Shown: piece by piece, positions 45,064 to 64,000 of the stretch | Layout: each line of letters starts with the position of its first letter | How positions within the stretch are numbered: the first letter of the stretch is position 1 | DNA from: an uncultured Clostridia bacterium | Lineage (GTDB): Bacteria > Bacillota > Clostridia > TANB77 > CAG-508 | Reading direction: 5' to 3' | Length of the DNA stretch: 64,000 nt | Assembly: GCA_944386685.1 (NCBI GenBank) | Contig: CALXCA010000001.1 | Span: 10,931 to 74,930 of the forward strand | Notes under the pieces: generated by a model | The model's input: the letters and a program-made list of their open reading frames with translations, nothing else | What the model was told of the DNA's origin: nothing | Database searches by the model: none | Position numbers and translations under genes: made by a program

Positions 45064-48000
45064 TTATTTAGTATTTTTTATTAAAACTTTTCTTTTAATA
45101 AATAGTACTCCAACTACTAGAACTATCAAGCCTAATCCTGCTGTTGTTATATATAGAGTTTTTGATATTATTACACCAGTTGGTGGTGTTATTGTTGTCC
45201 TTACACTATCTTCATCTGTTTCTTTTGCATATTCTGGTATTAAGTTACCTGGTGTTGTAACATTTACTCTATCATAACCAACTTCTGTTTTATCTTTATT
45301 TTGTGTATATCCTATATATTCTAGTATTTCTACATCATTTGTATATTTCATCTCATCACTTGTTGTTAATAATTTACTTACATTATAAGAAATTGATTTT
45401 GTCTCTCCAATTTTTACTAAAGAATCATTTTCATCAGAGAATGCATCTGTCATAAACATTATATATTTACCATCTTCTAGTTCTTTTTCTACTTCTTCAG
45501 TAATTAATCTATATGTTTTTTCTCCAGTAGCCTCTGTTGTTTTGTGTGCTATTAAGTCTTCCATTTCTGCAACTTCCCAGCCACTTCTCTTTAATTCATC
45601 TAAGTCTACATCTATTTCTGGTGTTAAGTAATCTACTAAAGTTCCAATTCTTACTGTTACTGGATTATTACCCTTTTCTCCATAGAAGTAGTAGTTTCTT
45701 TCATTTGCTACATCTGTATCACTTGTTATTTGATATATTGGATAATCTAATTCAGAATTATTACTTACTGAAATAGTATATTCTTCTTCTATTGTTGCAC
45801 CTTCTGTTAATTCTGTATCCATTTCAATTGGAACAAAATCATCTATTCCTGTTCTTACATATGGAATATCTTCATTTGGATCACTTGGGTTTCCTTTAAT
45901 AGGTACTTGACCATTTCCTAATGTTACTGTTAAATTTGTAATTTGTTTATCAACTTCTAATTCAACTAAAGGTCTTTCTATTAATCCAAAGTCCATATTT
46001 TGTAAATTATATTCATAATCTATTGTTCCATTTTCTTGTGTTGTTAATGTTGCATCAACATTTTGGTCATTAAATTGTTCTACACCTAGTCTCATATATG
46101 GAGTATATGCTTCCATTTCTGAGTATGCGTATTTTGAACTATCATTTATGTTTTCATTATTTAGTTTTGCATATTGTTCAAAATATGCTCTATATTCAAT
46201 ATCATCTACTGCATCTGAATATCTTGTTCCTGTATTGTTATTTAAGAACCATGATACATCAGTATTTCCTTCTGCCCAATCTCCGTTTAAATGTGGTATA
46301 CCATCATTTGCTGTATTTATTGCTTTTCTTATATAATCTGATGTTATTATTGTAGATTTATATTCTCTTGCCTTTATTGGCTCTTGTTTTACTTGTTCTC
46401 CATTATTGTAGATATAAGTATTCTTTCCTTCTCCACCAATATTTTCACCATAAGTATATCTTATTACATAATTGTCTGCAACTACACCTTCAAATGAATA
46501 GTTACCATTTTCATCTGTCCAAGTTACTGCATCTCCAATTTCTGTTTGTGTTCCATCATTATTTGTTTTATAAAGTTTTGCTAATTGATAATTATGTTTA
46601 GATGTTACATTATCTCTAGCCATTGTAGAATCATACATTTCGTTTGCATCTACTGGCACTAATAATAGTTCTACTTTAACATTTGACATTACACTTTCAT
46701 TTTCATCATATGTTCCATTTCCTAATCTTTCATTATCTTTTAACAAATCTTTATCAGCACTATCTTCATAAACTGTTCCTGTTATACTTGTTTGACTACC
46801 TTTTGTTAAGATAAATGTTGGTGCTATTGTTGTATCATTTTCAAATGTATCTATTTTAAATCTATTATTATCATTTGGATCTGTTTCTACTCTAGCATTT
46901 CTTGGAGCAGAATTACTATCTATACTTGCATATGGTCTTAATCCGCCAGATGTTTGTAAAGGAACTACTTCATTATCTGCATATGTTGAATATGTTTTTA
47001 TTTCTGCCATAAAGTCAAATTTAATTCCTTTTAATTCTCCATCTGGAGTATTTAATGCTGTTGCATCATTTAAAATTTCTGCTATAACTTTTGCATCTGC
47101 CCTTAGGGTTATTTCTATTACCTGTCTATTTTTTGCTTCTATTGTCTTATCACCTAATTGTGTTAAATCTAAAGTAAGTTCTTTAATTTCTCCAGTTCCA
47201 CCTGGATCTGTAACTGCTACGGCAGGTTCTCCCTCATAATTATATGATATACAAGATAATTGACTTCCATAATTAATTGTTATTTCCCTAATTTTTGCTG
47301 ATAATGTATTAGATTTATTTTGTAAATAAATTTTATAAGTAATATCTGCATATACATTTCCATTTGCACCTGTTGTTCCATCATCTGCACTATATACAAT
47401 TGTTGATTCATGTAATGGTCTTTCATAATAACTGTCTTTTAATGCTTTTAATTTAACTCCCATTTCTTCCTCTTTATTTGGATCAACTATTGTACCATAT
47501 TTATATATATGATGATAATTATTTACTGCTAAATCAAATCTTGCTACATCACTATCTAGTGCTAAGTCTACTTGCTCTCTTACATATAATCCTAAATTTA
47601 ATCCTTCTATTGTTGTTGTATTAGAAATGTTTGAGCCACTACCAGACATTGTTGCTGATAATAAATCTGCAATATTGCAATTGTTTAATGATGTTGCAAT
47701 TATATGGTAAACATCATCACCATAAGCTTCTGGGCTACCATAATTTACTTTTGATTCATAATCTCCAGATTTATTATAATTAATAGTTGCTGAAGCATTT
47801 ACTACTGTTCCTGTAGAATTTCCACTAGCATCCATTTGAGTATTAGAAGTTATTGTTTCAAACTTATTATTAAAGCTTTCTCTTACACTATCTTCTTCAG
47901 CTGCTTTTGATGAATCTAAAGCTCCACCTTTATTTAATTCTACATTTCTATATTTTACACCATTATATTCAAATTCAACATAATAGCTTGCTAAATCTTC

Positions 48001-51000
48001 TATTCTTAATGTATCTTCAGAATAAGATAAGTCTGCATTTCTTGATCCAAATGAGTATTCTCCATTTGCATCTGTAAATGTGCTAAAACTTGTTCCTCTT
48101 ACAGTATCATATAATGTTACTTTAACACCTTCAACTCTCTTATCTGTTCCACCTGTATAAACACTATCTATTGTATTGTCTTTTCCATCTAGCATATCTT
48201 CCCATACATAACCTTTTAGGTTAATAAATTCTTTCTTATTAGCAACTTTTACAATACAAATTATATCTCCAGAATTTATTGTTACTTCCGCAACCTTTTT
48301 ATTTCCTGCACCTGTATTATAATTATCTTCCCAAACACCATAACCATAAGGTGATTCTATTTCATAAATTGTATAAGTTCCTGCATGTAATCCTGTTATT
48401 GTTTCTCCAACTCCAACTTCCCATGTTTGACCATCACCTTCAACTCTAAATTTAAATCCAGAACCTCCTGGGTTTGAAGGATCATATAATATCTCTCCAG
48501 TATCTTCATCATATTTAAAAATTGTTAAACTTTTTGGTAGTTCTGGTGGTGTGAATGTAATTGTAGTAGAAAATGTTTCTTCTAAATCTAATGTACTACA
48601 AGCACTTTCTGGAACATTTATTGGTTGGCTAGTACTTTGACCTTGACCACATCCTGGACAAACATATTCTGGTGATACAACAAATTGATCTGTCCATGAG
48701 AAACATATTGTAATTGAAATATGTATTGTTCTAGAAATTGTAACACTTAATGATGTTGCACCTGCACTACCTTCTAATTGTACTGCTGTAACACTACAAT
48801 CAAGACCAGCTCCACCTGAAATTATACTCTCAATTGCTTCTCCATCAAATGATGTCATATTAGAAGCATCAACATGACCAGCAATTGCATTCCAAACAGC
48901 TTCTGATTCTGCATCTGTAAATGAGCCTGGAATATCTCCATCAATAGAGAAATCTAATCCTTCATTAGTCCAGCTCAAATTTGCTCCCTCTGGGAAGTCA
49001 TCTCCAGAAACTGTAACTGTTGTACTTGTTATAGATATACCTGTTGGTCCATTATATACAACTGGTACAGATATTTCACTCCATTCATAATATCTACCAT
49101 CACATTCTTGAGGTCCTGTTGGGTCATTTTCATCTACTGGATGACAGTTTTCATCAGTATGGAAGTGAGCTCCTGGTTTACCACATTTACCTTCACCAAC
49201 TAAATTTCCTGAATGGTCATATATCTTAAATACACCTGTTCCTGAACCTTGGAAATTAGATAAGATTGCACTAAATGTAGCTCCATGTAAATTTGCTGTT
49301 GCATCCATTACAGCATCTTGTACCATTGCTTCTGCTTGTGCTTGTGCATCTGCAATTGTTCCATCTATTGAATATGCAAAGCCTTTTGTATTAAATGCAA
49401 ACATTGATGTTGCAAAAATTACCATAAATAATACAAATAATCTCTTTTTAACAATAATTTTTCTCATAAATAATACTAATAATACTATACAAATTCCACC
49501 TAAAATTGTACTTCCCATAATTCTTAATGCAATTTGGAATCCTGTTGCAACTGCAATTAATACTTCTACTGAATCTGAATTATTTTCTGAATTCATATCT
49601 TCAGTATATTTTGAACTCTCTGTTGTTCCAAGTTTTGCTGTTGTAACAAATTTACCAGCAGAATCTGCATCTAATGTTTTACTTAATATAAATGTTGCTT
49701 CTATACTTTCTCCTGGTGCTATATTTTTATTTGCAAAACTTACATTACTGTATGTATTAGATAAAGAAACTGTCCAACCATCATTTAATTCTGAGTGGAA
49801 ATCTAATGTTGATGGAATTTCTTCTAATATCTCATATACCTTTCCATCTAAATCTCCAACATTTGTAACTCTTATTTTATATTCAATAATAACTGTTGAA
49901 CCAACTATTTGTTTTGAATGAATTTCAATTTTTGCAAATTTTTCATCATCAAAATTATATTCTTTTGTTCCTTTACTATTATTTACAGTTATTTTTTCTA
50001 CAAATTGTTCTATTTTTAAGTCAAATGTTTTTCTTTCACTTAATCCCATATCTATATTAGTATAATTTGTAATTAAATCTATTGTATTTGTAATACCAAC
50101 ATTTTTTACTTCTCCATCAATATTAACACTTTTTTCTATTGCGTCATTATTTTCTGATGGATTTGAATCTATAATTTGATAATCTGTGATTTTATATTTT
50201 TCTGTATCATATTCAAATACAACATAATATTCTCCTTTAGGAAGATTTGTAAAAGCATATGTTCCTTCTGATTGTGTAACTTGTTTTAATCTATTACCTT
50301 TATCATCTGTAACAAATTTATTATTTGTTACATCATATAAAGATACTGTTACACCTTCTATTTTACTTTCATTACTATCTTTAATTCCATTTTCATTATC
50401 ATCATTCCAAACTAAACCAGATATAGAATATGTTTTATTTGGTTGATCATTATTATCATCTTCTGGAGGTGTTACTATTGGTTTATCTTCTCCATCTGTT
50501 ACATTTCCATCTGAATCTACATCAATTATATTTGTAGTATCTGGATGATATAATGTATTTTGAATTATATTAGATTGTTTTGTCTTAATACCTTCTCCAC
50601 TTACTAATGCTGAATTTGCAATTTCAATATTATCTTGTTTAGCGTCAAATGCTCTAGTTTCTGTTACAATTTTTATTGTAATTGTTTCACCATTTTTTAT
50701 ATTTAAGTTAAGTTTTATTCTTGCAGGTCCAGTATTATCTTTACCATTTGCTTGACCTTTTTCTACTGTTCCCCAAACAACATTTTCTTCTGTTAAATTA
50801 TATTTAATTATAAAATAATTATCTAAATCTGTTCCTTGTGTAACTTTAAAATTATTATATTCTAATTCTTGTATAGAAAGTTCATTTGGAAGATAATCTT
50901 CAAATACTACTGATGTATATCCTCCCCATTCATCTATAGTATAACCTGTATTTGTAATTTCGTAAGTATATATTATTTCATTAAATTCTTCTATTCTTTC

Positions 51001-52518
51001 ACCACTTGTTTCAGAACTTTGTGTAATACTTACTGATTCTATTCCACCTGTTGCTATACATTCATTAGCTCTATAAATATTTCCATCTGAATTCTCAAAA
51101 TTTGAACTAACTTTAATCTCATACATTTTTTCTGTTGTTTCCTCAGCAATATTTACTTTTAAATTTAATGTAAAAGCTCTAAAAAATTGAGGTTCAATAT
51201 TGTCTACAACAATAGAAATTTTTCCATCTTTAACTTCATAATTTGCTACTGCACCTTCTCCTGCATATATAGCATCTACACTTGTAACTTCAACATTATT
51301 TGGAATAGTAAAATTAATTGTTCCACTTTTTGCTTCATCAGATAAATTTTTAATTATAATATTATATTCAAAATTGTTTTTTTCCATTCTGCTTTGATAT
51401 TGTCTCATTCTAACTTCAATATCACTTGGTTTAAGTGTATTTCTCATATTAAATGTGTAAATATAATTATCATTAACTAAAAATTCTATATTAGTTTCTG
51501 CATCAATTTCTGTATCTGTATTTGCTTTTAACTCATAAGATATTGTTTTAGTTTCTCCTGGTTGAAGTGTTTCTACGGTACGTTCAATATCTTTTATACT
51601 TTCATCAACAGTATATTGATATGTATCATCTTGCCAATATACTCCATTTTTATCTGGTTTTAAAGTTTCAACAGCTGTATATGTTTCATCCCAAAATTCA
51701 AAATTTTCTTCTAAATAATCTACATATACCATTCCATCTGGTATGTTTGCCATTAATTTCAAGTTATTAATTACATCTTGAGATATATTTGTAATATTTA
51801 TTTCATATTTTACTATTTCATTAGAATAAATAGTTTCACCATTTTCTAATGTTTTGTCTCCATGAATTGGGTTAATATTTAATTTAATACCATTTCTTTC
51901 TACAACCATTTGATTCTCATCATCTGTTGGTGTAGATGGAACAAGTTCAGTTGGATTTACAACTTTAATTGGAACATCTACCGTAAGTTTTAATGGTGTT
52001 GGAGTTGCAGCTCCATCTGTACATGTCATTTTAATTGATGTATCTTTTGTTTCTATATCTTGTTTTAAAATAACATTTGCAGAAATTACAATATTGGTTC
52101 CTTTTGTTAATTCATCTACTTTTGTTTTAGTTTGTTTTCCTGCTAATTGAACTTTTATTACTTGATTTCCACTTTCATTAGTTTCTACAATACAAGTATG
52201 AATACTTAATTCTGTATCATAAAGTAATTTTTGGTCATTTATTACTACCTTTTCTACTTCTTCTGGAAATTCAAATGTAATTAAAGGATTTTCGTATAAT
52301 ATAGAATCCTCCGAAGTTCTTTCTAATATACCTGTTATTACCAATTCTCCTTGAGTTTTATTAGTAAATTGTGTACGGCTTAAGCTCATACTAATTTTGC
52401 CTTGTGTTCCAGAACTAGTATCACTAGTTGCTTCTGTAGCTAAAGACACTAAACTTAGTAAAGAACTGTTTAATAACAATACTATTAATATTAAAATACT
52501 ACATATCTTTTTAGTCAT
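45064..52518 (-). CDS. Giant multi-domain surface protein 1 (about 2484 aa): DUF11-like and SdrD-B/Cna-B-like modules, mid-protein TM pair, C-terminal TPPTG anchor
   Basis: AGGAGG lies 9 nt upstream of ATG 52518; the track ATG at 52524 is only 3 nt from it. N-terminal signal peptide. DUF11/TIGR01451-like units (GETIYSNEIVKYEINITNISQDVINNLKLMANIPDGMVYV). SdrD-B-like units (YSISGLVWNDDNENGIKDSNESKIEGVTVSLYD; LKGYVWEDMLDGKDN..VEGVKVTLYD; ITGTVYEDSADKD). SpaA/prealbumin-like unit (SLTIFKYDEDTGEIL...YTIYEIESPYGYG). C-terminus TPPTG-TM-KRK. Confidence 0.85.
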   Translation of the reverse strand: MTKKICSILILIVLLLNSSLLSLVSLATEATSDTSSGTQGKISMSLSRTQFTNKTQGELVITGILERTSEDSILYENPLITFEFPEEVEKVVINDQKLLYDTELSIHTCIVETNESGNQVIKVQLAGKQTKTKVDELTKGTNIVISANVILKQDIETKDTSIKMTCTDGAATPTPLKLTVDVPIKVVNPTELVPSTPTDDENQMVVERNGIKLNINPIHGDKTLENGETIYSNEIVKYEINITNISQDVINNLKLMANIPDGMVYVDYLEENFEFWDETYTAVETLKPDKNGVYWQDDTYQYTVDESIKDIERTVETLQPGETKTISYELKANTDTEIDAETNIEFLVNDNYIYTFNMRNTLKPSDIEVRMRQYQSRMEKNNFEYNIIIKNLSDEAKSGTINFTIPNNVEVTSVDAIYAGEGAVANYEVKDGKISIVVDNIEPQFFRAFTLNLKVNIAEETTEKMYEIKVSSNFENSDGNIYRANECIATGGIESVSITQSSETSGERIEEFNEIIYTYEITNTGYTIDEWGGYTSVVFEDYLPNELSIQELEYNNFKVTQGTDLDNYFIIKYNLTEENVVWGTVEKGQANGKDNTGPARIKLNLNIKNGETITIKIVTETRAFDAKQDNIEIANSALVSGEGIKTKQSNIIQNTLYHPDTTNIIDVDSDGNVTDGEDKPIVTPPEDDNNDQPNKTYSISGLVWNDDNENGIKDSNESKIEGVTVSLYDVTNNKFVTDDKGNRLKQVTQSEGTYAFTNLPKGEYYVVFEYDTEKYKITDYQIIDSNPSENNDAIEKSVNIDGEVKNVGITNTIDLITNYTNIDMGLSERKTFDLKIEQFVEKITVNNSKGTKEYNFDDEKFAKIEIHSKQIVGSTVIIEYKIRVTNVGDLDGKVYEILEEIPSTLDFHSELNDGWTVSLSNTYSNVSFANKNIAPGESIEATFILSKTLDADSAGKFVTTAKLGTTESSKYTEDMNSENNSDSVEVLIAVATGFQIALRIMGSTILGGICIVLLVLFMRKIIVKKRLFVLFMVIFATSMFAFNTKGFAYSIDGTIADAQAQAEAMVQDAVMDATANLHGATFSAILSNFQGSGTGVFKIYDHSGNLVGEGKCGKPGAHFHTDENCHPVDENDPTGPQECDGRYYEWSEISVPVVYNGPTGISITSTTVTVSGDDFPEGANLSWTNEGLDFSIDGDIPGSFTDAESEAVWNAIAGHVDASNMTSFDGEAIESIISGGAGLDCSVTAVQLEGSAGATSLSVTISRTIHISITICFSWTDQFVVSPEYVCPGCGQGQSTSQPINVPESACSTLDLEETFSTTITFTPPELPKSLTIFKYDEDTGEILYDPSNPGGSGFKFRVEGDGQTWEVGVGETITGLHAGTYTIYEIESPYGYGVWEDNYNTGAGNKKVAEVTINSGDIICIVKVANKKEFINLKGYVWEDMLDGKDNTIDSVYTGGTDKRVEGVKVTLYDTVRGTSFSTFTDANGEYSFGSRNADLSYSEDTLRIEDLASYYVEFEYNGVKYRNVELNKGGALDSSKAAEEDSVRESFNNKFETITSNTQMDASGNSTGTVVNASATINYNKSGDYESKVNYGSPEAYGDDVYHIIATSLNNCNIADLLSATMSGSGSNISNTTTIEGLNLGLYVREQVDLALDSDVARFDLAVNNYHHIYKYGTIVDPNKEEEMGVKLKALKDSYYERPLHESTIVYSADDGTTGANGNVYADITYKIYLQNKSNTLSAKIREITINYGSQLSCISYNYEGEPAVAVTDPGGTGEIKELTLDLTQLGDKTIEAKNRQVIEITLRADAKVIAEILNDATALNTPDGELKGIKFDFMAEIKTYSTYADNEVVPLQTSGGLRPYASIDSNSAPRNARVETDPNDNNRFKIDTFENDTTIAPTFILTKGSQTSITGTVYEDSADKDLLKDNERLGNGTYDENESVMSNVKVELLLVPVDANEMYDSTMARDNVTSKHNYQLAKLYKTNNDGTQTEIGDAVTWTDENGNYSFEGVVADNYVIRYTYGENIGGEGKNTYIYNNGEQVKQEPIKAREYKSTIITSDYIRKAINTANDGIPHLNGDWAEGNTDVSWFLNNNTGTRYSDAVDDIEYRAYFEQYAKLNNENINDSSKYAYSEMEAYTPYMRLGVEQFNDQNVDATLTTQENGTIDYEYNLQNMDFGLIERPLVELEVDKQITNLTVTLGNGQVPIKGNPSDPNEDIPYVRTGIDDFVPIEMDTELTEGATIEEEYTISVSNNSELDYPIYQITSDTDVANERNYYFYGEKGNNPVTVRIGTLVDYLTPEIDVDLDELKRSGWEVAEMEDLIAHKTTEATGEKTYRLITEEVEKELEDGKYIMFMTDAFSDENDSLVKIGETKSISYNVSKLLTTSDEMKYTNDVEILEYIGYTQNKDKTEVGYDRVNVTTPGNLIPEYAKETDEDSVRTTITPPTGVIISKTLYITTAGLGLIVLVVGVLFIKRKVLIKNTK

Positions 52519-52656
52519 AAACATTTACCTCCTAATTAATTTTATTAATAAACACTACTTTTATTATACCATATATTACCTTATTTTTCAACATTTTTAT
52601 CAAATTTCTTATCAATAGTTACTAGATTATGGTCTTGAATAAAATAGAAAATAAAG

Positions 52657-52684
52657 AAACGATGATATTATAATATCATCGTTT
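52657..52684. repeat. Perfect AT palindrome AAACGATGATAT-TATA-ATATCATCGTTT inside an approximately 78-bp dispersed repeat (52638-52715)
   Basis: Uninterrupted counterpart of the site split by the element at 4778-4940. Confidence 0.7.
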
Positions 52685-52733
52685 TTAGCAAAACAATTCA
52701 AATGACCATTATCTACTATCATACAAAAACATA

Positions 52734-52778
52734 AAAAGCTGGGATAGAAAACTTTTTAGATTTTCCATCTCAGCTTTT
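52734..52778 (-). terminator. Terminator after giant gene 2
   Basis: AAAAGCTGGGATAGAAAA / TTTTCCATCTCAGCTTTT imperfect 18-bp stem. A U-rich tract follows on the minus strand. Confidence 0.5.
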
Positions 52779-52832
52779 ATTTTATATAACTATCAATTTT
52801 ATGAATTTTTATAATATTTATATAATTTCAAG

Positions 52833-55800
52833 TTATTTAGCTAAAATTCTTTTCTTGATAATTAATACTCCAACTACTAGAATTGCAAGTCCTAAACCAG
52901 CTGTAATTATATATAAAGTTTTTGATATGATTACACCAGTTGGTGGTGTTATTGTTGTTCTTACACTATCTTCATCATCCTCTTTTGCTCTTTCTGGTAT
53001 TAAGTTACCTGGTGTTGTATCATTCTTTCTATCATATACATTTTCTGTTTTATCTTTATTTTGGCTATATCCTATATATTCTAGTATTTCTACATCATTT
53101 GTATATTTCATTTCATCACTTGCTGATAGTAATTTACTTACATTATATTTAATAGATTTTGTCTCTCCAATTTTTACAAGTAAGTCATTTTCATCTGCAA
53201 ATGAATCTAATGTAAATATTATATATTTTCCGTCTCTAAGTTTTTGTTCAACTTGTTTTGTTATTAATCTATAAGTTTTTTCTCCAGTAGCTTCTGTTGT
53301 TTTATGTGCTGTTAAGTCTTCTATTTCCGCTACTTCCCATCCATTTCTCTTCATCTCATCTAAGTCTACATCAATTTCTGGTGTTAAGTAGTCTGCTAAT
53401 GTTCCTACTCTTACTGTTACTGGATTATTTCCTTTTTCTCCATAATAGTAGTAATTTCTTTCGTTTGCTACATTAGTATCACTTGTAATTTGATAAATTG
53501 GATAATCTAGTTCAGAATTATTATTAATAGATATTGTATATTCTTGCTCAATTGTTGCACCCTCTATTAATTCTGTATCCATTTCAATTGGTACAAAGTC
53601 ATCTATACCTGTTCTTACATATGGTATATCTGCATTAGGATCACTTGGGTTTCCTTTAATTGGTACTTGACCATTACCTAATGTTACAGATACATCTGTT
53701 GTTTGTTTATCTACTTTTAGGTCTACAATTGGTCTTTCTATTAATCCAAAGTCTACATTTTGTAATTTATATTCATAATCTATTGTTCCATTTTCTTGTG
53801 TTGTTAATGTTGGTGTTACATTTTGGTCGTTAAACTCTTCAACACCTAGTCTTATAAATGGTGTATATGCTTCCATTTCTGAGTATGCGTATTTTGAACT
53901 ATCATGTAAGTTCTCATTATTCAATTTTGCAAATTCTTCAAAATATGCTCTATATTCTACATCATCTACAGCATCTGAATATCTTGTTTCTGTGTTGTTA
54001 TTTAAGAACCATGATACATCTGTATTTCCTTCTGCCCAATCTCCATTTAAATGTGGTATACCATCATCTGCTGTATTTATTGCTTTTCTTATATAATCTG
54101 ATGTTATTATTGTAGATTTATATTCTCTTGCTTTTATTGCCTCTTCTTTTACTTGTGTACCATTGTTATAAATATAAGTATTCTTTCCTTCTCCTCCAAT
54201 ATTTTCACCATATGTATATCTAATTACATAATTGTCTGCTATAACACCCTCAAATGTATAGTTACCATTTTCATCTGTATATGTTACCGCATCTTCAATT
54301 GCTGTTTGAGTTCCAGTATCATCTGTTTTATATAATTTAGCTAATTGATAATTATGTTTAGATGTTACTTCATCTCTTGCCATTGTAGAATCATACATTT
54401 CATTTGCATCTACTGGTACTAATAATAACTCTACTTTTACATTTCCCATTACACTTTCACCTGTGTCATAAATACCATTACCTAATCTTTCGTTTTGAGA
54501 AAGTTTATCTTGTTCTGGTTTGTCTTCAAATACTGTTCCTGATATTACTGTTTGACTACCTTTTGTTAAGATAAATGTTGGTGCTATTGTTGTATCATTT
54601 TCAAATGTATCTGTTATGAATCTATTTTGATCATCTGTTTCTACTTTTGCATTTCTTGGTGCAGAATTACTATCTATACTTGCATATATATTACCATCTG
54701 AATATGTGCTATATGATTTTATTTCTGCCATGAAGTCAAATTTAATTCCTTTTAATTCTGTATCTCCTTGTTTAAGTGTTACTTCATCATTTAATATTTC
54801 TGCTATAACATCTGCATTTGCTCTAAATGTTACTTCTAATACTTGTCTATTTTTTGCTTCTATTGTTTTATTTCCTATTGCATTTAAGTCTAAATCTATT
54901 TCTTTAATTTCTCCTGTTTGAGCTGGTTCTGTTACTGCAACTGCAGTTTCGCCCTCAAAGTTATATGAAATACATGTTAATTGACTACCATAATTTAATG
55001 TTAATTCATTAAGAACTGCACTTAATGTATTAGATTTATTTTGTAAATATATCTTATAAGTTATATCTGCATATAAGTTTCCATTAGCTCCTGTTGTTCC
55101 ATCATCTGCACTATATACAACTGATGCCTCATGTAATGGTCTTTGATAATAATTTTCTTGTAATGCTTTTAATTTTACTCCCATTTCTTCTACTTTATTT
55201 GGATCAACTATTGTGCCATATTTATATATATGATGATAATTATTTATTACTAAGTCAAATCTTGCAACATCACTGTCTAGTGCTAAATCTACTTGTTCTC
55301 TTGAATATAATCCTAAGTTTACATTCTTAATTTCTTTTGATTGATATACTTCATTTTCAAGAACTAATTCTACTGTATCTTCAAATTTATATCTAAAGTC
55401 TTCAACATCTGTTGATGCTCTTATATGGTATTTTTCAAATCCATATGATGAGTAATCTGTTGTACTTCCTGCATATGTTGTTCCATCATATATTGTAGAA
55501 TCTCCATATATTACACTTGAAGCATAATCTCCAGATCTTTGATATGTAATATCTGTTGCAGTTACTTCTCCGGCACCGTTTTTTGCAAATCCTCCTGAAG
55601 TATGTCCATTACCATCTATTGCAGTTTTGTCTGTTGTAATTACTGTAAATTTATTGTTAAAGTCTGTTCTTACTGTATCTCCCTCAATTGCTTTTGATCC
55701 TGTCTCAATATCTAATTGTGGTTCTACATTTGAATATTTAATACCATTATATTCAAATTCTACATGATATTTTCCTGCGAATAAATCTTCTATTAAAATA

Positions 55801-58800
55801 GTGTCTGGAGTATAGTGTAAATCTGCTGTCCTATCACCAAATGTATATTTACCTTCTGAATCTGTCCAAGTCTCTCCTACAACGTTTCCATCATTGTATA
55901 ATATTACTTTAACTCCTTCTACACCTTTGTCTGTACCTTCTGTAAATACATTATCAAACTCGTTGCTCTTTCCATCAAGCATATCTTCCCATACATATCC
56001 TGATAATCTTAAATGAGATAATGCATTTCTTAATTCAATAGTTGTTTTAATTAAGTGTTCTTGTAGCTTAATTTCAAATGTTTTATAACTTCCATCTTCT
56101 TCATAAATATCATATCCAAATGGAGAATCTATTTCTTCTAAGTGATATGTTTGATTTGGTTCTAGAGTAATTGTTTCACCTGCTTCAAATTCTTGTCCTG
56201 TTTCTACAACTCTAAATCTAAATCCTCCTGTAAATTCTTCTTCTGTATCAACATCTTTTTTAACAATTGTAACTTGTGCTTTACCATCTTCTGGTATATC
56301 TATATCAGGTGGGTTATCTGGTGGGTTATCTGGTGGATTATCTGGATTGTCTGGTTCATCTGGTGTATCTCCTCCTCCATCATCACTTGGTGGTGTTTCT
56401 TTTGGTGGAATAATTACTGTTGGTGGTGTTTCCTCTGGTGGGAATTTATCTGTTGATGGAATGTCTAAATCGCTACTTTCAATTTCATCACCTAATGTAA
56501 CTTTCATTTGTTGTACCTCTCTACCACACCAATCTTCTGTAGGTGTATATGTTGCTTCAAATTGCCATTTTAATGTACCATCACCATCTGTTGTTAATGT
56601 AAGGTCTGATTCTGTTAATTCATAGTCTAAAAATGTTTGACTTGTTTGAGCTTTACCTTTACTTATACATGCTGCAACTTCATTTCCTTGTTCATCTACG
56701 AATGTTTGGAAGTGTCCTTTACCATTTGGATCTACATAATAGCTATCTGGATCTCCTTTAAATTGTTTTTCTGCTGGATATTGTGAAATTATTGTGCTTA
56801 AATCTTCGTCTAAATCTTGTAATGCATTTAAGTCTATATCTCCTAAGTTTAAACTATCTACATCAACATCTTTTAATGCATCACTACTTGTAATTTTGTC
56901 TTTAAGAGCATTAAGATCTTCTTCTTTCTTTTGATTATATGCTGCAATTGCTTCATCTGCAGTTGAACCCTCTGGAATAGTTAATCCAGATTCTCCATAA
57001 GTAGTATTTAAATAATTTGTTACACAAGAGTCTATCATTGCATTAACATCATCTATAGATCCACATTGACTTACATCTATTCCATATGCTCCATATCTTG
57101 CTGTTGCTTGATCTTTTGCTGCTTGTAATCTTGCTGCTTGTTCAGCTGCAATTCTAGCATCATAGTCTTCTTGTGTCTCACCCTCTTGTGGGTCATAGTT
57201 TACTGTTGGTAAACCAGATTCATCTACACTAGCACTACTGCTACTACTACTATCACTACTACTTGATGACGAACTGCTTGATGAACTACTATCTGAACCA
57301 CCTGATAATGCACCTGAAACAGCATCTGCTATCTGTTGACCTGCTTCTTTAAAGTCGTCAACAGCACCTTGAGCATAATCTCCTACTGCATCCACTACAT
57401 CCTTTACTTCATCAAAAAGACCAGCATTACTTATTGGCATTCTATCAAATGTTACAACTAATGCACAAATCATAATAAACATAAACATTGCTTTTCCGCC
57501 AAAATTATTAATTTTTCTTATAGCAATATAGAATAATACTGCTATTGCAACTAAAGCAATTGATGTTGCTAAATATTTTAGTGCAATTTGGAAACCTGTA
57601 GATACTGCAATTAATACAGTTGTTCTATCTATATTGTTTTCTTTATTTGCCTCATCTATATGTTTACTATTATCTGTTAATTTAATTTGCGAAACATTTT
57701 CATATGTACCACCAGATGTTTCGTCTAATGTTATACTTAAAGTTAGTGGTATTTCTATACTTTCACCTGGTTTAATTTCTGTATTTAAAAATTTAGCAGT
57801 ACTTAATGTTGATAATGATTTTGACCATCCACTATTTAATTCTGAATGGAAATCTAAGCCTTGTGGAAGTTGATCTATCATTTCATATACATAACCTGGC
57901 AATTCTCCAACATTTGTAACTTTAATTTTATATGCTATAACAACTGTTGATCCAACAAATTCTTTTGAATGAATCTCTATTTTAGCAAATTTTTTGTCAT
58001 CATATGTATATTCTTTATTTCCTTTTTTATTGCTTACTGTAATTTTTGTAATATATTGTTGCATTTCTAAGTCAAATATTTGGTTTTCTACTAAACCTAA
58101 ATCTATATTTGTTTTTGTAGAATCTAATACAATTGTATCTGTTATTCCTACAGTTTTTATCTCATTTCCAATTTTAGCTTGTTTTTCTATTGCATCATTA
58201 TTAGTTGTTTCTACAACACCTGTTTTTTGGAAATCTGTTATTTTATATTCATCTGTATCAAATTCAAATACTACATAATATCTTCCTGTAGGTACTTTTG
58301 TAAATGAATATCTACCTGCTTCGTTTGTTTCTTCTGTAATAACATTTCCATTTTCATCTTTTAAGAATGTATTATTTTGTACATCAAATAAAGATACTTT
58401 TATGCCTTGTTTTAAATCTTCTCCTTCGTCTCTTCTTCCATTTGAATTATTATCTACCCATGCTAAACCAGAAAGTGTCCATACTTTATTTTCTTGTTCT
58501 GTAGGAGTTGATGTTGATGGAGTATTATCTCCATTATTACCGTCATTATTGTCTTGGTCTTTATTTGCTTCACTATCATCTGGATTAATTATTATTGTTT
58601 GCTCTTCATTATTTTGTAAAGTATTAGTTACTGTATTTGCTAATTGTGGGATAAATGTATCACCAATTACAGCTCCTCTACTTTCTATTGTCTTATCATC
58701 ATCTTGTCCAGCTAAAGAATTTACCATTGCTTTAATTGTTATAATACTTTTTTCATTCATTCTTAAACTTATTGGTAGAGCAAATCTAATTCCTAATTTA

Positions 58801-60641
58801 CCTGTTTCTGAGTTTGGATCATCTGTATTTGCTTTATCTAATTCATCTTTTTCATAATATTTATTTTTTGGTGTAATTTCATATTCAAATTTATTTTCAT
58901 TTGAATTTACAACTACATCATCTGTATTATAAGTTACAGATGTAATTTTTAAATCATATGGTAATTCAAATGCAAATGCAAATTCTGTATATCCACCCTC
59001 TTCTTCACTTACATAACCAACATTTTCTACTTCAAATACATATGTAACATCATCATATCCATGTAATATTTCACCATTTTTATCTGAACTTTGAGTTATA
59101 GAAATTGCTTCAATTCCACCTTTTGACACACTTTGGTTTGAAGTAAAGATATTTCCATCCTCATCTTCTGTTTCTGCAGATAAAGCATATTCATATTTAT
59201 ATTCTTCATTAATAGAAATATTGTTTACTTTTGCTTTAACTTCAAATGCTCTATAATCTCCTGCTTCTATATCTTTATATTTAACTGTTAATATTCCATT
59301 TTCTAATTTGTAATCTAAATCGCCTTCATTTTTTTCAACTAATTTAGCTACCTCTGTAACTTCTATATTTGAAGGAATTTTCATTGTTATAGTTGCATCA
59401 TGTTTTTCGTCAGAAATGTTTTTAACAATTATGCTATATTCATATGCATTTTTCTCTGTTAAACTAAAATATGTTCTTATTCTAGTTTCAAAATTAGCAT
59501 TTGTTATATAGTTTTTAATATTATAAGTTGAAATATTATCTCCATTTATTGTTGTTTCTATTTGAGTATTTACTTCTACATTCTCTGTTTCAACTTTATT
59601 TACTTCTACTTCATAATAAAATGTTTTCTTTTCTCCTGAATATATTGTTCCAACATCAAATTCTTTTGTTTTTAAATCTGGGTTAGAAATATATTGTAAG
59701 TCATCATCTTGGTATAAAGATGTTGCCCAATCTTCACTTGTTTCTTTACTATCTGTTAAAAATGTATATGTTTCTGCATAATAACTAAATGCTTCTTCAT
59801 CATATTCTACATATGTCATGTTTTCTGGAATATGACCAAGAATTTTTACATTATCTATTTGCTTATCAGTTGTATTTGTCACTGAAACTTCATATTTAAT
59901 AATTTCATTTGAATGGATTATGCTTCCATCTTCTAGTAATTCTGTTCCTCTAATAGCTTTTGTGTTAATCATTAATCCATTTGCATATACAATTGTTCCT
60001 TCTTCGTCATCTGTTGTTGAATCATTAATAATTTCATCATCAGTTGAATTTACTAATAATATAGCTTGGTTTGTACTTGCACTATTACAAGACATTTTTA
60101 TCGAATCTGCTCCAGTTTCTATATCTTGTTTTAAAATAATATTAGTTGAAACCCTAATATTTGTACCTTTAGTAATTGAATCTGTTGAATATTTTGTTTG
60201 CGTTCCTTCTAGTTCTACTTTTAATACTTTGTTTCCAGTAGAATTATCTTCAATAATATAATTTTTTAATTTTAATTCATCATCATATAAAATTTTTATA
60301 TCATTTACTACTACTTTTTCTACTGCTTCTGGGAACTCAAAATAAACAACAGGATTATCATATAAGGCACAGTCCTCTGTGTCTTTTTCTAATATTCCTG
60401 TAATAATAAGTTCATTTGGTATTCTATTTGTTAATTTTGTATAATTTATGTTTAGACTTATTTTTTCTTTTTTATCATTCGAGTTGGTCTGGGTTGCACT
60501 ATTTTCGACTTCTGTGAGTTTTGTCATATTTTCTTCAATAAATGTTTGGGTGTCTTCAACAGCAGTCGAAACAACAGTTAATAACGAACTGTTTAACAAA
60601 AACAAAATAATAAGAAAAATACTTATTGATTTTCTTAACAT
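52833..60641 (-). CDS. Giant multi-domain surface protein 2 (about 2602 aa), paralogue of protein 1
   Basis: Start moved to ATG 60639-60641 (GGGAGGGA + 5 nt; the track GTG at 60656 is inside the RBS). Same architecture as protein 1, plus a poly-Ser tract and PDNP repeats. The C-terminal approximately 1000 aa are colinear with proteins 1 and 3. C-terminus TPPTG-TM-KKR. Confidence 0.85.
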   Translation of the reverse strand: MLRKSISIFLIILFLLNSSLLTVVSTAVEDTQTFIEENMTKLTEVENSATQTNSNDKKEKISLNINYTKLTNRIPNELIITGILEKDTEDCALYDNPVVYFEFPEAVEKVVVNDIKILYDDELKLKNYIIEDNSTGNKVLKVELEGTQTKYSTDSITKGTNIRVSTNIILKQDIETGADSIKMSCNSASTNQAILLVNSTDDEIINDSTTDDEEGTIVYANGLMINTKAIRGTELLEDGSIIHSNEIIKYEVSVTNTTDKQIDNVKILGHIPENMTYVEYDEEAFSYYAETYTFLTDSKETSEDWATSLYQDDDLQYISNPDLKTKEFDVGTIYSGEKKTFYYEVEVNKVETENVEVNTQIETTINGDNISTYNIKNYITNANFETRIRTYFSLTEKNAYEYSIIVKNISDEKHDATITMKIPSNIEVTEVAKLVEKNEGDLDYKLENGILTVKYKDIEAGDYRAFEVKAKVNNISINEEYKYEYALSAETEDEDGNIFTSNQSVSKGGIEAISITQSSDKNGEILHGYDDVTYVFEVENVGYVSEEEGGYTEFAFAFELPYDLKITSVTYNTDDVVVNSNENKFEYEITPKNKYYEKDELDKANTDDPNSETGKLGIRFALPISLRMNEKSIITIKAMVNSLAGQDDDKTIESRGAVIGDTFIPQLANTVTNTLQNNEEQTIIINPDDSEANKDQDNNDGNNGDNTPSTSTPTEQENKVWTLSGLAWVDNNSNGRRDEGEDLKQGIKVSLFDVQNNTFLKDENGNVITEETNEAGRYSFTKVPTGRYYVVFEFDTDEYKITDFQKTGVVETTNNDAIEKQAKIGNEIKTVGITDTIVLDSTKTNIDLGLVENQIFDLEMQQYITKITVSNKKGNKEYTYDDKKFAKIEIHSKEFVGSTVVIAYKIKVTNVGELPGYVYEMIDQLPQGLDFHSELNSGWSKSLSTLSTAKFLNTEIKPGESIEIPLTLSITLDETSGGTYENVSQIKLTDNSKHIDEANKENNIDRTTVLIAVSTGFQIALKYLATSIALVAIAVLFYIAIRKINNFGGKAMFMFIMICALVVTFDRMPISNAGLFDEVKDVVDAVGDYAQGAVDDFKEAGQQIADAVSGALSGGSDSSSSSSSSSSSSDSSSSSSASVDESGLPTVNYDPQEGETQEDYDARIAAEQAARLQAAKDQATARYGAYGIDVSQCGSIDDVNAMIDSCVTNYLNTTYGESGLTIPEGSTADEAIAAYNQKKEEDLNALKDKITSSDALKDVDVDSLNLGDIDLNALQDLDEDLSTIISQYPAEKQFKGDPDSYYVDPNGKGHFQTFVDEQGNEVAACISKGKAQTSQTFLDYELTESDLTLTTDGDGTLKWQFEATYTPTEDWCGREVQQMKVTLGDEIESSDLDIPSTDKFPPEETPPTVIIPPKETPPSDDGGGDTPDEPDNPDNPPDNPPDNPPDIDIPEDGKAQVTIVKKDVDTEEEFTGGFRFRVVETGQEFEAGETITLEPNQTYHLEEIDSPFGYDIYEEDGSYKTFEIKLQEHLIKTTIELRNALSHLRLSGYVWEDMLDGKSNEFDNVFTEGTDKGVEGVKVILYNDGNVVGETWTDSEGKYTFGDRTADLHYTPDTILIEDLFAGKYHVEFEYNGIKYSNVEPQLDIETGSKAIEGDTVRTDFNNKFTVITTDKTAIDGNGHTSGGFAKNGAGEVTATDITYQRSGDYASSVIYGDSTIYDGTTYAGSTTDYSSYGFEKYHIRASTDVEDFRYKFEDTVELVLENEVYQSKEIKNVNLGLYSREQVDLALDSDVARFDLVINNYHHIYKYGTIVDPNKVEEMGVKLKALQENYYQRPLHEASVVYSADDGTTGANGNLYADITYKIYLQNKSNTLSAVLNELTLNYGSQLTCISYNFEGETAVAVTEPAQTGEIKEIDLDLNAIGNKTIEAKNRQVLEVTFRANADVIAEILNDEVTLKQGDTELKGIKFDFMAEIKSYSTYSDGNIYASIDSNSAPRNAKVETDDQNRFITDTFENDTTIAPTFILTKGSQTVISGTVFEDKPEQDKLSQNERLGNGIYDTGESVMGNVKVELLLVPVDANEMYDSTMARDEVTSKHNYQLAKLYKTDDTGTQTAIEDAVTYTDENGNYTFEGVIADNYVIRYTYGENIGGEGKNTYIYNNGTQVKEEAIKAREYKSTIITSDYIRKAINTADDGIPHLNGDWAEGNTDVSWFLNNNTETRYSDAVDDVEYRAYFEEFAKLNNENLHDSSKYAYSEMEAYTPFIRLGVEEFNDQNVTPTLTTQENGTIDYEYKLQNVDFGLIERPIVDLKVDKQTTDVSVTLGNGQVPIKGNPSDPNADIPYVRTGIDDFVPIEMDTELIEGATIEQEYTISINNNSELDYPIYQITSDTNVANERNYYYYGEKGNNPVTVRVGTLADYLTPEIDVDLDEMKRNGWEVAEIEDLTAHKTTEATGEKTYRLITKQVEQKLRDGKYIIFTLDSFADENDLLVKIGETKSIKYNVSKLLSASDEMKYTNDVEILEYIGYSQNKDKTENVYDRKNDTTPGNLIPERAKEDDEDSVRTTITPPTGVIISKTLYIITAGLGLAILVVGVLIIKKRILAK

Positions 60642-61010
60642 AAAAATCCCTCCCACTTTTACAATACTATTAATATTTTATCACAATTTTACATAAAACA
60701 CAAGCTTTTTGCCATTTTTTTCTAATTTTTTTATTTTAACTAACTTGCATATTTTTTAGCTGTCTGTAGGCATTTAGGGAAACTTGACTTACAACGTTTT
60801 TTTATGTCTTGCTTCAAGTTTTTTATTTATATATTTTTTGTAGTTTTTTGTTTTTACATCATATAAAAACGCATTTTCTACAATGCAAAGAATAGCAAGG
60901 AAAACTTGCTATTCTTTGTTTTGATTAAATATTTTCATTTGTATTTTTAAATATCTAGTTATTTTCTTTAGTTTTTATTGTTTCTTTAGTTTTTATTTAT
61001 TTTAGAAGTT

Positions 61011-64000
61011 TTATTTATTTAAAACTCTTTTTTTAATAAATATTACTCCTACAACTAGAATAATTAATCCTGTTCCTATTGTTGATATATATATAATACT
61101 TGATATCAATACACCAGTTGGTGGTGTTATTGTTGTTCTAACACTATCTTCATCTGTTTCTTTTGCATGTTCTGGTATTAAGTTTCCTGGTGTTGTATCA
61201 TTTACTCTATTATAGCTATTTTCTGTTTTGTCTTTATTTTGTGTATATCCTATATATTCTAGTATTTCTACATCATTTGTATATTTCATATCATCTTCTG
61301 CTGATAATACTTTGCTTACATCATATTTTATAGCTTTCGTTTCTCCAATTGCTACAAGTGAATCATTTGGATCTGAGAATGAGTCTGATGTAAATAATAT
61401 ATATTTTCCATCTACTAAAGCTTGTTCTACATCTTCTGTAATTAATCTATATGTTTTTTCTCCTGTTGCTTCCATTACTTTATGTGATGTTAAGTCTTCT
61501 ATTCCTACTACTTCCCATCCTCCTCTTTTTAATTCGTCTAAATCTACATCTATATCTGGTGTTAAATAATCGGCTAACATTCCTATTCTTACAGTTGCAG
61601 GCATACTACCTTTTTCTCCATAATAATAGTAATTTCTTTCATTTGCTACATCTGTATCACTTGTTATTTGATATATTGGATAATCTAACTCAGAATCATT
61701 TGTAATAGAAATAGTATATTCTTGCTCTATTGTTGATCCATTTATTAACTCTGTATCCATTTCTATTGGTACAAAATCTTCTATACCTGGTCTAATATAT
61801 GGCATATCTGCATTAGGATCACTTGGATCACCTTTTATTAATATTTGACCATTTCCTAGTGTTAATTCTAAGTCTGTTGTTTGTTTATTTACTTGTAAGT
61901 TTACTATTGGCCTTTCTATTAATCCAAAATCTATGTTCTGTAGTTTATATTCATAATCAATTGTTCCATTTTCTTGTGTTATTAATGTTGAATCCACATT
62001 TTGGTCATTTAATTGTTCTACACCTAATCTAATAAATGGTGTATATGCTTCCATTTCTGAATATGCATATTTAGAGCTATCATTTACATTTTCATTATTT
62101 ACTCTTGCAGATTGTTCATAAAATGCTCTATATTCTACATCATCTACTGCATCTGAGTATCTTGTTCCTAAATTGTCATTTAAGAACCATGATTTATCTG
62201 TATTTCCATCTGCCCAGTCTCCATTTAAGTGTGGTATTCCATCATTTGATGTATTTACTGCTTTTCTTATATAATCTGATGTTATTATTGTAGATTTATA
62301 TTCTCTTGCTTTTATTGGATCTACTTTTACTTGAACACCATTATTATATATATAAGTATTTTTTCCTTCACCACTTATATTTTCACCATATGTGTATCTA
62401 ATTACATAATTATCAGCTACTACACCTTCAAATGTGTAATTTCCGTTTTCATCTGTCCATGTTACTGCGTCTACTATATCTACTTGAGATCCACTGCTGT
62501 CTGTTCTATATAATTTTGCTAGTTCATAATTATGTTTTGATGTAACATTATCTCTTGCACTAATTGAATCATACATTTGATTTGCGTCTACTGGTACTAG
62601 TAACAATTCTACTTTTACATTTCCCATTACACTTTCATTTTCATCATAAATACCATTTCCTATTCTTTCATTTTGAGCTAATTTTTCTTCTTCTGCTTTA
62701 TCTTCATAAACAGTTCCTGATATTGATGTTTGACTTCCTTTTGTAAATACTATTGTTGGTGCTATTGTTGTATCATCTTCAAATGTATCTGTTATAAATC
62801 TGTTTTGATTATCTAATTCTACTCTTGCATTTCTTGGTGCAGAATCTTGATCTATACTTGCATATTCATATAATGTATTAGTATTTCTTCCTAATAAGTC
62901 TTCTTCATTGTTTGAATATGTACTATATGATTTTATTTCTGCCATGAAATCAAATTTGATTCCACTATATTGTTCCCCATTTAATTCTAGAACAACTGCA
63001 TTTTTTAACATTTGTGCAATTACATTTGCATTTGCTCTAAATGTTACTTCTAATACTTCTTGGCTCATATTATTTATTGTTTTATTTGGTAAATTATTCA
63101 AATTTAATATTAATTCTTTCATTGTACCATTTATATTTGTACCATCAGCTGTTTTTACAGCTCCTTCACTTTCGAAATTATATGAAATTGCTTCTAATTC
63201 ACTATTGTAATTTACAGTAATTTCATTTATTTTTGATTTTAATGTATCTGAATTGTTTTCTAAGTATATTTTATATGTAATATCTGCATATACATTTCCG
63301 TTTTCTCCTGTTGTTCCATTGTCTTGACTATATACAATTGATGAAGCATGTGTCATTCTTTGATAATACATATTTTTAATATTTTGGAATCTTTCTTCTA
63401 AGTTTGTATCATCACTTTGTTTTATTAATGTTCCATATTGATATGTGTGATTATATCCATTTACATTTAAATCTATTCTTGCTAAATCACTTTCTATTTC
63501 TAAGTCTACTTGTTCTCTTTCATATAATCCTAAATTTACTGCTTTTATTTCATCTGTATATCCTGTTGTATTTCTTATTGGGTCATAATATGTTTTAAAG
63601 TCATAATTTTTATATGTAGTTGCTTTTATGTGATATATGTTTTCTCCATATGATTCTGGATCTCCATTTGGATCTTGCATATTTTTTCCATATTGTATAC
63701 TTGATTTATGTTGTTCTTCACTTTGATAACTTATTTGGTCTGGATATTCTGTTCCTGCTTTGTCTATTACTTTTCCTGTAGATTCTCCATTTCCATTTAT
63801 TTGATCTTTTGCATCTATTGTTGTAAATCTTTCGTTAAATTGTACTCTTTCTGTTGAATCTTCATCTGGCTTTTTAGAAGCTATTTCCTCTGATGCTTTT
63901 GAACCTACTGTATCTTTTGGATCTGGGTTTAATTCTACATTTCTGAATTTAACTCCATTATATTCAAATTCTACCCAATATTCACTTGCTCTTCTTAATA
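61011..64000 (-). CDS. Giant surface protein 3, partial (N-terminus beyond the right edge)
   Basis: The track starts it at M 63680, but the same frame stays open to base 64000. It reads ...ASEYWVEFEYNGVKFRNVELNPDPKDTVGSKASEE...ERVQFNERFTTIDAKDQINGNGESTGK..., colinear with YYVEFEYNGVKYRNVELNKGG... of protein 1. C-terminus TPPTG-TM-KKR. Confidence 0.85.
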   Translation of the reverse strand, partial: LRRASEYWVEFEYNGVKFRNVELNPDPKDTVGSKASEEIASKKPDEDSTERVQFNERFTTIDAKDQINGNGESTGKVIDKAGTEYPDQISYQSEEQHKSSIQYGKNMQDPNGDPESYGENIYHIKATTYKNYDFKTYYDPIRNTTGYTDEIKAVNLGLYEREQVDLEIESDLARIDLNVNGYNHTYQYGTLIKQSDDTNLEERFQNIKNMYYQRMTHASSIVYSQDNGTTGENGNVYADITYKIYLENNSDTLKSKINEITVNYNSELEAISYNFESEGAVKTADGTNINGTMKELILNLNNLPNKTINNMSQEVLEVTFRANANVIAQMLKNAVVLELNGEQYSGIKFDFMAEIKSYSTYSNNEEDLLGRNTNTLYEYASIDQDSAPRNARVELDNQNRFITDTFEDDTTIAPTIVFTKGSQTSISGTVYEDKAEEEKLAQNERIGNGIYDENESVMGNVKVELLLVPVDANQMYDSISARDNVTSKHNYELAKLYRTDSSGSQVDIVDAVTWTDENGNYTFEGVVADNYVIRYTYGENISGEGKNTYIYNNGVQVKVDPIKAREYKSTIITSDYIRKAVNTSNDGIPHLNGDWADGNTDKSWFLNDNLGTRYSDAVDDVEYRAFYEQSARVNNENVNDSSKYAYSEMEAYTPFIRLGVEQLNDQNVDSTLITQENGTIDYEYKLQNIDFGLIERPIVNLQVNKQTTDLELTLGNGQILIKGDPSDPNADMPYIRPGIEDFVPIEMDTELINGSTIEQEYTISITNDSELDYPIYQITSDTDVANERNYYYYGEKGSMPATVRIGMLADYLTPDIDVDLDELKRGGWEVVGIEDLTSHKVMEATGEKTYRLITEDVEQALVDGKYILFTSDSFSDPNDSLVAIGETKAIKYDVSKVLSAEDDMKYTNDVEILEYIGYTQNKDKTENSYNRVNDTTPGNLIPEHAKETDEDSVRTTITPPTGVLISSIIYISTIGTGLIILVVGVIFIKKRVLNK

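Follow-up and report, generated by a model that had tools for sequence, protein, structure and literature searches.

Can a single bacterial open reading frame (ORF) hold two complete surface proteins, each with its own export signal and its own anchor? The question is raised by P1 (Giant protein 1), an ORF of 2486 amino acids (aa) at 45064..52524 on the minus strand of the window, which is a 64,000-nucleotide (nt) stretch of DNA from an uncultured Clostridia bacterium (contig CALXCA010000001.1, positions 10,931 to 74,930; G+C = 26%). An initial annotation read P1 as two complete secreted, anchored proteins fused in frame, in which a segment resembling a sorting signal is followed directly by one resembling a signal peptide. 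Stand-alone homologues and loci with two separate genes bear this reading out. On this comparative evidence, P1 is a natural fusion, in frame, of the two genes (A and B) of a conserved adhesin cassette, and P1, like its neighbor P2, is probably a polyprotein cut by signal peptidase I into two surface proteins.

To our knowledge, the wall- or membrane-anchored adhesins of Gram-positive bacteria have all been described as single-gene products with one signal peptide and one anchor each. The literature was searched for Gram-positive surface proteins with an internal sorting signal or an internal signal peptide, and nothing relevant came up. The parts of P1 are known (CLIPPER/DUF11 domains, SdrD-B domains, a SpaA-type stalk, Sec signal peptides and xPxTG anchors), and the combination of an internal anchor with an internal signal peptide directly after it is undescribed for Gram-positive surface proteins in the literature that was searched.

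Layout of P1 and its junction

P1 is a fused precursor of modules A and B, with hydrophobic segments at the N-terminus, the junction and the C-terminus only (Kyte-Doolittle scan). Pfam matches are SdrD_B at aa 700-784, DUF11/CLIPPER at aa 879-988 and CarboxypepD_reg at aa 1460-1494. The features of P1, from N- to C-terminus, are as follows (an arrow marks a predicted cleavage site).

52438..52524, minus strand: N-terminal signal peptide of module A (aa 1-29, ...LVSLA↓TEA; hydrophobic segment at aa 1-32)
49555..49947, minus strand: terminal, membrane-proximal beta-sandwich of module A, putatively CLIPPER/DUF11 (about aa 860-990; AlphaFold; Pfam PF01345 at aa 879-988)
49540..49554, minus strand: AVATG motif (aa 991-995; T-G invariant across the family)
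49465..49539, minus strand: hydrophobic segment 1, the predicted stop-transfer anchor derived from the C-terminal anchor of module A (aa 996-1020; homologues end past it and a basic tail)
49441..49464, minus strand: basic loop RKIIVKKR, merged anchor tail and signal-peptide n-region (aa 1021-1028; net charge +5; predicted cytoplasmic)
49393..49440, minus strand: hydrophobic segment 2, h-region of the predicted internal signal peptide (aa 1029-1044, 16 aa; its position matches the gene B signal peptide in split pairs)
49375..49392, minus strand: c-region NTKGFA with the predicted signal peptidase I site A1050↓Y1051 (aa 1045-1050; G at -3, A at -1; alternative site AYS↓I after S1052)
45190..49374, minus strand: module B (aa 1051-2445), a Cys-containing N-terminal domain and then stalk domains of the SpaA, SdrD-B and CarboxypepD_reg types (Pfam)
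45067..45189, minus strand: C-terminal sorting signal of module B (aa 2446-2486; TPPTG, hydrophobic stretch, IKRKVLIKNTK; translation)

Residue numbering follows the listed ORF from its first ATG throughout. Translation probably starts at the second ATG (52518, MTKK...), which makes the listed ORF (MFMTKK) two codons too long. This assignment follows from the Shine-Dalgarno spacing, with AGGAGG lying 3 nt 5' of the first ATG and 9 nt 5' of the second, and from the start of P0001, a 98%-identical protein that begins at MTKK.

The junction (aa 989-1050) maps exactly to 49375-49560, and its sequence agrees with that first reported: LIAVATG-FQIALRIMGSTILGGICIVLLVLFM-RKIIVKKR-LFVLFMVIFATSMFAF-NTKGFA↓YSIDG. 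The residues across the predicted cleavage site are ...NTKGFAYSIDGTIADAQ..., and after a cut at 1050↓1051 module B would begin YSIDGTIADAQAQAEAMVQDAVMDATANLHGATFSAILSNFQGSGTGVFK. The DNA in and near the junction contains no stop codon or frame change. The true C-terminus of P1 reads ...TITPPTG-VIISKTLYITTAGLGLIVLVVGVLF-IKRKVLIKNTK. An AlphaFold model of the junction (predicted local distance difference test score, pLDDT, 81.6) shows a beta-sandwich whose last strand spans aa 983-993, a helix at 996-1023, a turn, a second helix at 1027-1044 and a break at NTK. Foldseek searches with this model returned generic beta-sandwich matches only.

Origin and conservation of the fusion

A first homologue search with P1 aa 700-1400 as the query returned 16 proteins. 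The same internal junction is present in P0002, P0003, P0004 and P0006, and P0007-P0015 are homologues of the first half that terminate after an xxTG motif, a hydrophobic stretch and a basic tail, as in the C-terminal end ...IISVKTGVVQYIGIILFTIAILTLGVYIINKKVIKI. The contigs that encode P0012 (L001) and P0011 (L002) carry gene A, then 17-19 nt with a Shine-Dalgarno site, then gene B. The gene B products are 2226 aa or 1749 aa long, start with the canonical signal peptides MRINNFIKAIAIILMIMVISIISTKVFA↓GNW and MSSKFKKLLLSIIILLVGILVSGTAQA↓GS, and are homologous to module B of P1 (E 5e-19 for L001 and 3e-23 for L002). The L002 alignment with the C-terminal half of P1 is collinear as far as the VTPPTG anchor. 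Seven further loci share this arrangement, giving nine split loci with a spacing of 15-25 nt; orthologues of P1 thus exist as two separate genes, the second with its own ribosome-binding site and signal peptide. The stand-alone A homologues and the split loci identify segment 1 as the C-terminal anchor of the A protein and segment 2 as the signal peptide of the B protein.

Compared across these loci, gene A consists of a signal peptide, a stalk, a CLIPPER-type domain, xxTG, a hydrophobic stretch and a basic tail, and gene B of a signal peptide, a head domain, a stalk, xPxTG, a hydrophobic stretch and a basic tail. The split pairs (e.g. L001, L002, L017, L019, L021, L024, L025 and L028) share with P1 homologous modules in the same order, the xxTG end of A, and the signal peptide and xPxTG anchor of B. 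They differ in having two genes with a stop codon, 15-25 nt and a Shine-Dalgarno site between them, whereas P1 has one frame and an 8-aa basic loop instead. By the same comparison, the anchor tail and the signal-peptide n-region are collapsed in P1 into this one short basic loop.

The distribution of the fusion was measured by an exhaustive profile-free search with P1 aa 860-1070, which gave 1881 matches at E <= 0.001. About 165 proteins were examined. These comprised the top 150 cluster representatives, both paralogues of the window and the proteins that the first search had returned. The internal junction occurs in 59 of them, in proteins of up to 4366 aa, and about 100 stop right past segment 1. 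Of 28 species-level loci, 18 have the fused form and 9 the split form; the remaining one is fused but carries a frameshift further on. On a neighbor-joining tree of the terminal domain, parsimony requires about four changes between fused and split, a clade of 42 tips is the largest that is purely fused, and the root state is inferred to be split. This analysis indicates that the fusion arose only about four times and is old and maintained; the few origins and the 42-tip purely fused clade argue that it is kept by selection. The architecture had been called unusual for bacterial adhesins. This stands insofar as no description of it was found in the literature, yet within this gut Clostridia family it is common, old and stable.

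Several orthologues retain the junction in frame. L003, L004, L005 and L009 are 90, 82, 74 and 44% identical to P1 over the whole protein, and in these four species-level orthologues the junction is about as conserved as the remaining protein. P0001, a fragment from an independent assembly, includes the junction within its 98% identity. The related genomes found are all metagenome-assembled genomes of uncultured gut Clostridia from human and rabbit; the genome scan was made with a 6-sequence alignment. The exact sequences of P1 and P2 were not found in the protein collection, and the relatives that were looked up carry no database names.

The window itself contains a second copy of the architecture, in the next gene upstream on the same strand as P1.

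52833..60656, minus strand: P2 (Giant protein 2), a tandem paralogue with the same architecture (translation)
57423..57608, minus strand: P2 junction, LIAVSTG-FQIALKYLATSIALVAIAVLFYIAI-RKINNFGGK-AMFMFIMICALVVTF-DRMPISNA↓G, with the motif AVSTG

These data bear on whether a sequencing or assembly error, or a recent pseudogenizing mutation, removed the stop and start between two genes. Given the short spacing in the split versions, a single small deletion would be enough for a fusion. However, two paralogues in the window, the independent assembly and 18/28 species-level genomes all share the in-frame junction, within deep fused clades whose halves are intact. The junction DNA has no stop or frameshift that would betray an error, and the idea that one hides a stop/start is refuted; decay or artefact is hardly credible as the source of the P1 junction.

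Three observations concern individual members of the family. P0028 (4202 aa) has two junctions, at residues about 1060-1118 and 2674-2731, and so holds three modules in one frame; its first junction has the degenerate motif TQSNG where xxTG is expected. The fused homologue at L015:6353-15266 has its B part in another frame from about 130 aa past the junction, either because a frameshift has made it a pseudogene or because the assembly is wrong there. In the 42-member fused clade the loop has the conserved pattern K(Y/F)G(I/L)LK(I/L)GK and is not merely basic; a role besides charge is suggested, for instance that the insertion machinery recognizes it.

Fate of the junction

Segment 2 has the layout of a Sec signal peptide that was first proposed for it. 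In P1 it consists of a basic n-region (RKIIVKKR), a 16-aa h-region (LFVLFMVIFATSMFAF) and a polar c-region (NTKGFA↓Y) with small residues at -3 and -1. Its position in P1 and P2 is internal, not N-terminal as in an ordinary signal peptide; the counterpart in the nine split loci is N-terminal, with a start codon and a Shine-Dalgarno site of its own. In the set of 59 junctions, the median core length is 14 aa for segment 2 versus 29 aa for segment 1, a measured length that usually counts in some of the hydrophobic last strand preceding T-G. Between the cores, the loop has a median of 10 aa and a median net charge of +4.

Cleavage sites were scored as [AVSTILGC]-x-Ala, with no Pro after, within a 15-aa c-window. 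A small-x-Ala site follows segment 2 in 44 of the 59 fused homologues (75%). The corresponding rate at the true N-terminal signal peptides of these proteins is 81%. The control rates were 25% in random windows (binomial p = 1.6e-15) and 33% after internal hydrophobic segments of other multi-segment ORFs in the same loci (Fisher p = 3e-6). Position -3 is mostly occupied by S, V, T or A. Counted from the end of the core, the first qualifying site is 0-10 residues away (4-9 in 31/44). The predicted sites are G-F-A↓Y in P1 and S-N-A↓G in P2.

Several points weigh against a signal peptidase I cut. As its presence in 25-33% of the controls attests, the (-3,-1) pattern is a permissive one. Several members of the P1 clade have Glu at -3 (KEYA↓Y), which makes a poor signal peptidase I site, and the alternative AYS↓I is not universal either. 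The signal-peptide features may in part be an ancestral legacy with no present role, a view that their persistence at 30-45% sequence identity speaks against. A motif search found no signal peptidase or sortase gene in the window. Natural cleavage of internal signal peptides is rare in bacteria.

Without such a cut, segments 1 and 2 would form a permanent helical hairpin in one polypeptide with both halves outside, and the features of segment 2 would be evolutionary leftovers. The helix-turn-helix of the AlphaFold model is consistent with this arrangement, as are the agreement of the basic loop with the positive-inside rule, the poor -3 residues in some close relatives (KEYA↓Y) and the lack of a strict site in a quarter of the fused proteins. 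It is at odds with a segment 2 core whose median is just 14 aa, and with a small-x-Ala rate equal to that of the family's true signal peptides across lineages that are only 30-45% identical. An uncleaved product would also suit a stalked adhesin poorly, since the B head would be pinned at the membrane while the C-terminus is anchored as well. The uncleaved hairpin is a possible outcome that we consider unlikely. The initial annotation had left the choice between a mid-protein hairpin and a polyprotein cut by signal peptidase and/or sortase; the comparative evidence favors the signal peptidase cut over the plain hairpin, and the sortase cut is taken up below.

Module B could also be translated separately, from a start codon in the loop of the same mRNA. 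P1 has a Met just before the basic loop (M1020-RKIIVKKR...) that would give a perfect stand-alone signal peptide, and in P2 a Met opens segment 2. Neither M1020 nor the P2 Met is preceded by a Shine-Dalgarno sequence, however, whereas the true starts have AGGAGG or GGGAGGG, and a Met is found at this place in only 17/59 fused proteins. The upstream frame reads through in any case, and the fused product would be made regardless. The absence of a Shine-Dalgarno sequence at the internal Met and of the Met itself from most fused relatives makes separate translation of B very improbable.

The likeness of the internal segment (aa 991-1028) to a sorting signal holds in part. It shares the three-part layout and the T-G with sortase-anchored Gram-positive proteins, which carry LPXTG or, in the Clostridioides difficile SrtB type, (S/P)PxTG: a 25-aa hydrophobic stretch follows the motif and is itself followed by RKIIVKKR. 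The likeness fails at the proline in position 2 (AVATG in P1, AVSTG in P2), at the TIGR01167 LPXTG_anchor model, which gave no match even at E = 10, and at location, as the segment lies 1458 residues from the end of P1 and its motif closes a folded beta-strand. In about 100 stand-alone relatives the homologous segment is C-terminal. The true C-terminus of P1 fits the sortase-anchored type, with TPPTG, 25 hydrophobic residues and IKRK...; it scored 14.6 bits with TIGR01167, just below the 15.9 cut-off. A proline-containing xPxTG ends 35/40 fused homologues with a complete C-terminus.

The T-G pair is invariant in the 27 sequences of alignment A1 (T135, G136) and in 160/160 terminal domains. The 35 fused proteins caught by a motif search all have S/A-(I/V)-(S/A/K)-T-G, with proline in none, and some stand-alone homologues have NPATG, QPATG or MPSTG at this position. 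In the AlphaFold model the final beta-strand of the CLIPPER-type sandwich ends with AVATG, and the membrane helix begins at the next residue with no linker. T-G may be conserved for structure because the motif ends the last strand of a folded domain.

Processing could be double, with the signal peptidase cut joined by a sortase cut at AVAT↓G that would link module A to peptidoglycan and leave a hairpin of about 55 aa in the membrane. This scheme is compatible with signal peptidase cleavage, and it accommodates the three-part layout, the invariance of T-G, the proline-containing motifs of some stand-alone homologues and a tail, (I/L)KK(K/Y)VL, like that of the B anchor. The proline-free motif of every fused protein examined, the missing LPXTG_anchor match and the strand-end position without a linker speak against it, and a motif search for sortase genes (TLxTC-type ORFs) found none in the window or the fetched locus flanks. 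C. difficile SrtB failed to cleave the proline-free NVQTG in vitro (PMC4155245, PMC4371152). NVQTG was considered as a precedent for a proline-free sortase motif and dropped for this reason; the result counts against sortase cleavage of AVATG. Given the missing proline, the lack of an LPXTG_anchor match and the strand-end position in the model, a sortase cut at the internal AVATG is possible but unsupported, and double processing is doubtful, somewhat more so than the uncleaved hairpin.

From the fusion, its origin and its conservation we infer the following course of processing by signal peptidase I. The N-terminal signal peptide would start Sec export of module A, segment 1 would stop transfer, and the basic loop would remain in the cytoplasm. 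Segment 2 would then re-insert with its N-terminus inside and restart export of the ~1400-aa module B. Signal peptidase I would cut past the retained c-region, at GFA↓YS (1050↓1051) in P1 and SNA↓G in P2. Module B would be freed, so that its head can project outward, and would be held by its own TPPTG sorting signal, presumably via sortase. Segment 1, the loop and the remnant of the signal peptide would keep module A tethered. Such a precursor would probably be of benefit by yielding the two partners, otherwise encoded by close adjacent genes, in a strict 1:1 ratio and at the same site. We incline slightly to the broader view that these gut Clostridia adhesins are true bacterial polyproteins, in which stop-transfer anchors would alternate with internal signal peptides cleaved by signal peptidase, to yield two separately anchored proteins or, from P0028, three.

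Flavivirus-type polyproteins have a stop-transfer helix followed by an internal signal sequence that is cut by host signal peptidase. The logic proposed for P1 is the same: an anchor helix, a short cytoplasmic loop, an internal signal sequence with a small-x-small site and the next ectodomain. The flavivirus proteins differ in being viral and processed in the eukaryotic endoplasmic reticulum, and there is no homology; P1 would be a bacterial Sec/signal peptidase I version in a cellular adhesin. Bradyrhizobium japonicum FbcH is a bacterial polyprotein, a cytochrome b-c1 precursor whose internal signal peptide, placed behind membrane helices, is reportedly cleaved to give two mature proteins. 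FbcH belongs to a Gram-negative respiratory membrane complex and has no sorting signals, whereas P1 encodes a cell-surface adhesin pair. Module A resembles the CLIPPER (DUF11) fibrillar adhesins (PMC12617251) in its repetitive stalk and in a terminal beta-sandwich that may be of the DUF11/CLIPPER type; an internal junction of anchor and signal peptide is not described there.

If correct, the proposal would define a new biogenesis route for Gram-positive surface proteins, with two or three units strung in one precursor, and would add a rare natural bacterial example of internal signal-peptide cleavage. The coexistence of fused and split forms points to a functional partnership of the two adhesin modules in abundant uncultured Clostridia of the human and animal gut. 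There are consequences for annotation: such ORFs are unnamed or would receive a single giant DUF11/SdrD label, and may be misread by topology predictors. Being short and portable, the junction is easy to test, and it could serve the stoichiometric co-display of two proteins.

Paralogues, neighborhood and terminal domains

Three giant paralogous adhesin genes lie in tandem on the minus strand at 45064-64000. The third is given here.

61011..64000, minus strand: third tandem paralogue, with a B-type C-terminal part; the frame is open to the window edge, and any junction lies beyond the window

Its listed 889-aa ORF is the C-terminal part only, because the frame is open to the edge. P2 probably starts at the ATG at 60641 and not at the GTG at 60656. 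P1 and P2 are 41% identical in their N-terminal halves and 70% in their C-terminal halves (last 1184 aa), and the first ~300-400 aa past the junction are unrelated between them; in P2 this region is a helical Ser-rich stretch with PDNPPDNPPD repeats. The pattern suggests either gene conversion of the stalk or diversification of the head. A long AT-rich spacer precedes both P1 and P2, and each is followed by a terminator-like hairpin. The region 41683-44915 (minus strand), downstream of the array, encodes a holo-ACP synthase, a TatD-family nuclease, a family-4 uracil-DNA glycosylase and a GltA-like NADPH-dependent glutamate synthase. These are housekeeping genes, and the array accordingly belongs to the core chromosome and not to any obvious mobile element.

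The terminal domain of module A scored 24.1 bits against PF01345 in P1 (cut-off 24.6) and 25.2 bits in P2, and its model is a beta-sandwich. Foldseek ranked 9IFR only 43rd for the P1 model, with a weak score. Alignment A1 contains an invariant Lys (K12) and a near-invariant Asn (N102) spaced much as in 9IFR (PMC12617251), a candidate pair for an intramolecular Lys-Asn isopeptide bond.

The N-terminal domain of module B (aa 1051-1334) had no Pfam match, and its AlphaFold model (pLDDT 67.3, mediocre) had no match in the PDB at E <= 0.001. A conserved Cys motif, C-(I/V/M)-x-x-G, lies 35-60 aa past the predicted cleavage site in fused and split relatives (YCVEH, YCIQPG, YCMNEG) and resembles thioester-domain motifs. 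In P1 it is CGKPGAHFH, at aa about 1110-1125 (window about 49150-49195). A thioester adhesin domain (TED) was considered as the module B head and dropped as unsupported; Pfam found no TED in P1, P2, P0038, P0056 or P0074, and there was no PDB match. The Gln of the TED motif, which we take to be TQxA(I/V)W, is missing in the clade of P1. Dockerin type I domains were detected above the Pfam threshold within module B of P0056 (aa 1688-1743) and P0038 (aa 1752-1806), which hints at calcium-dependent interactions of the cohesin-dockerin type in some members.

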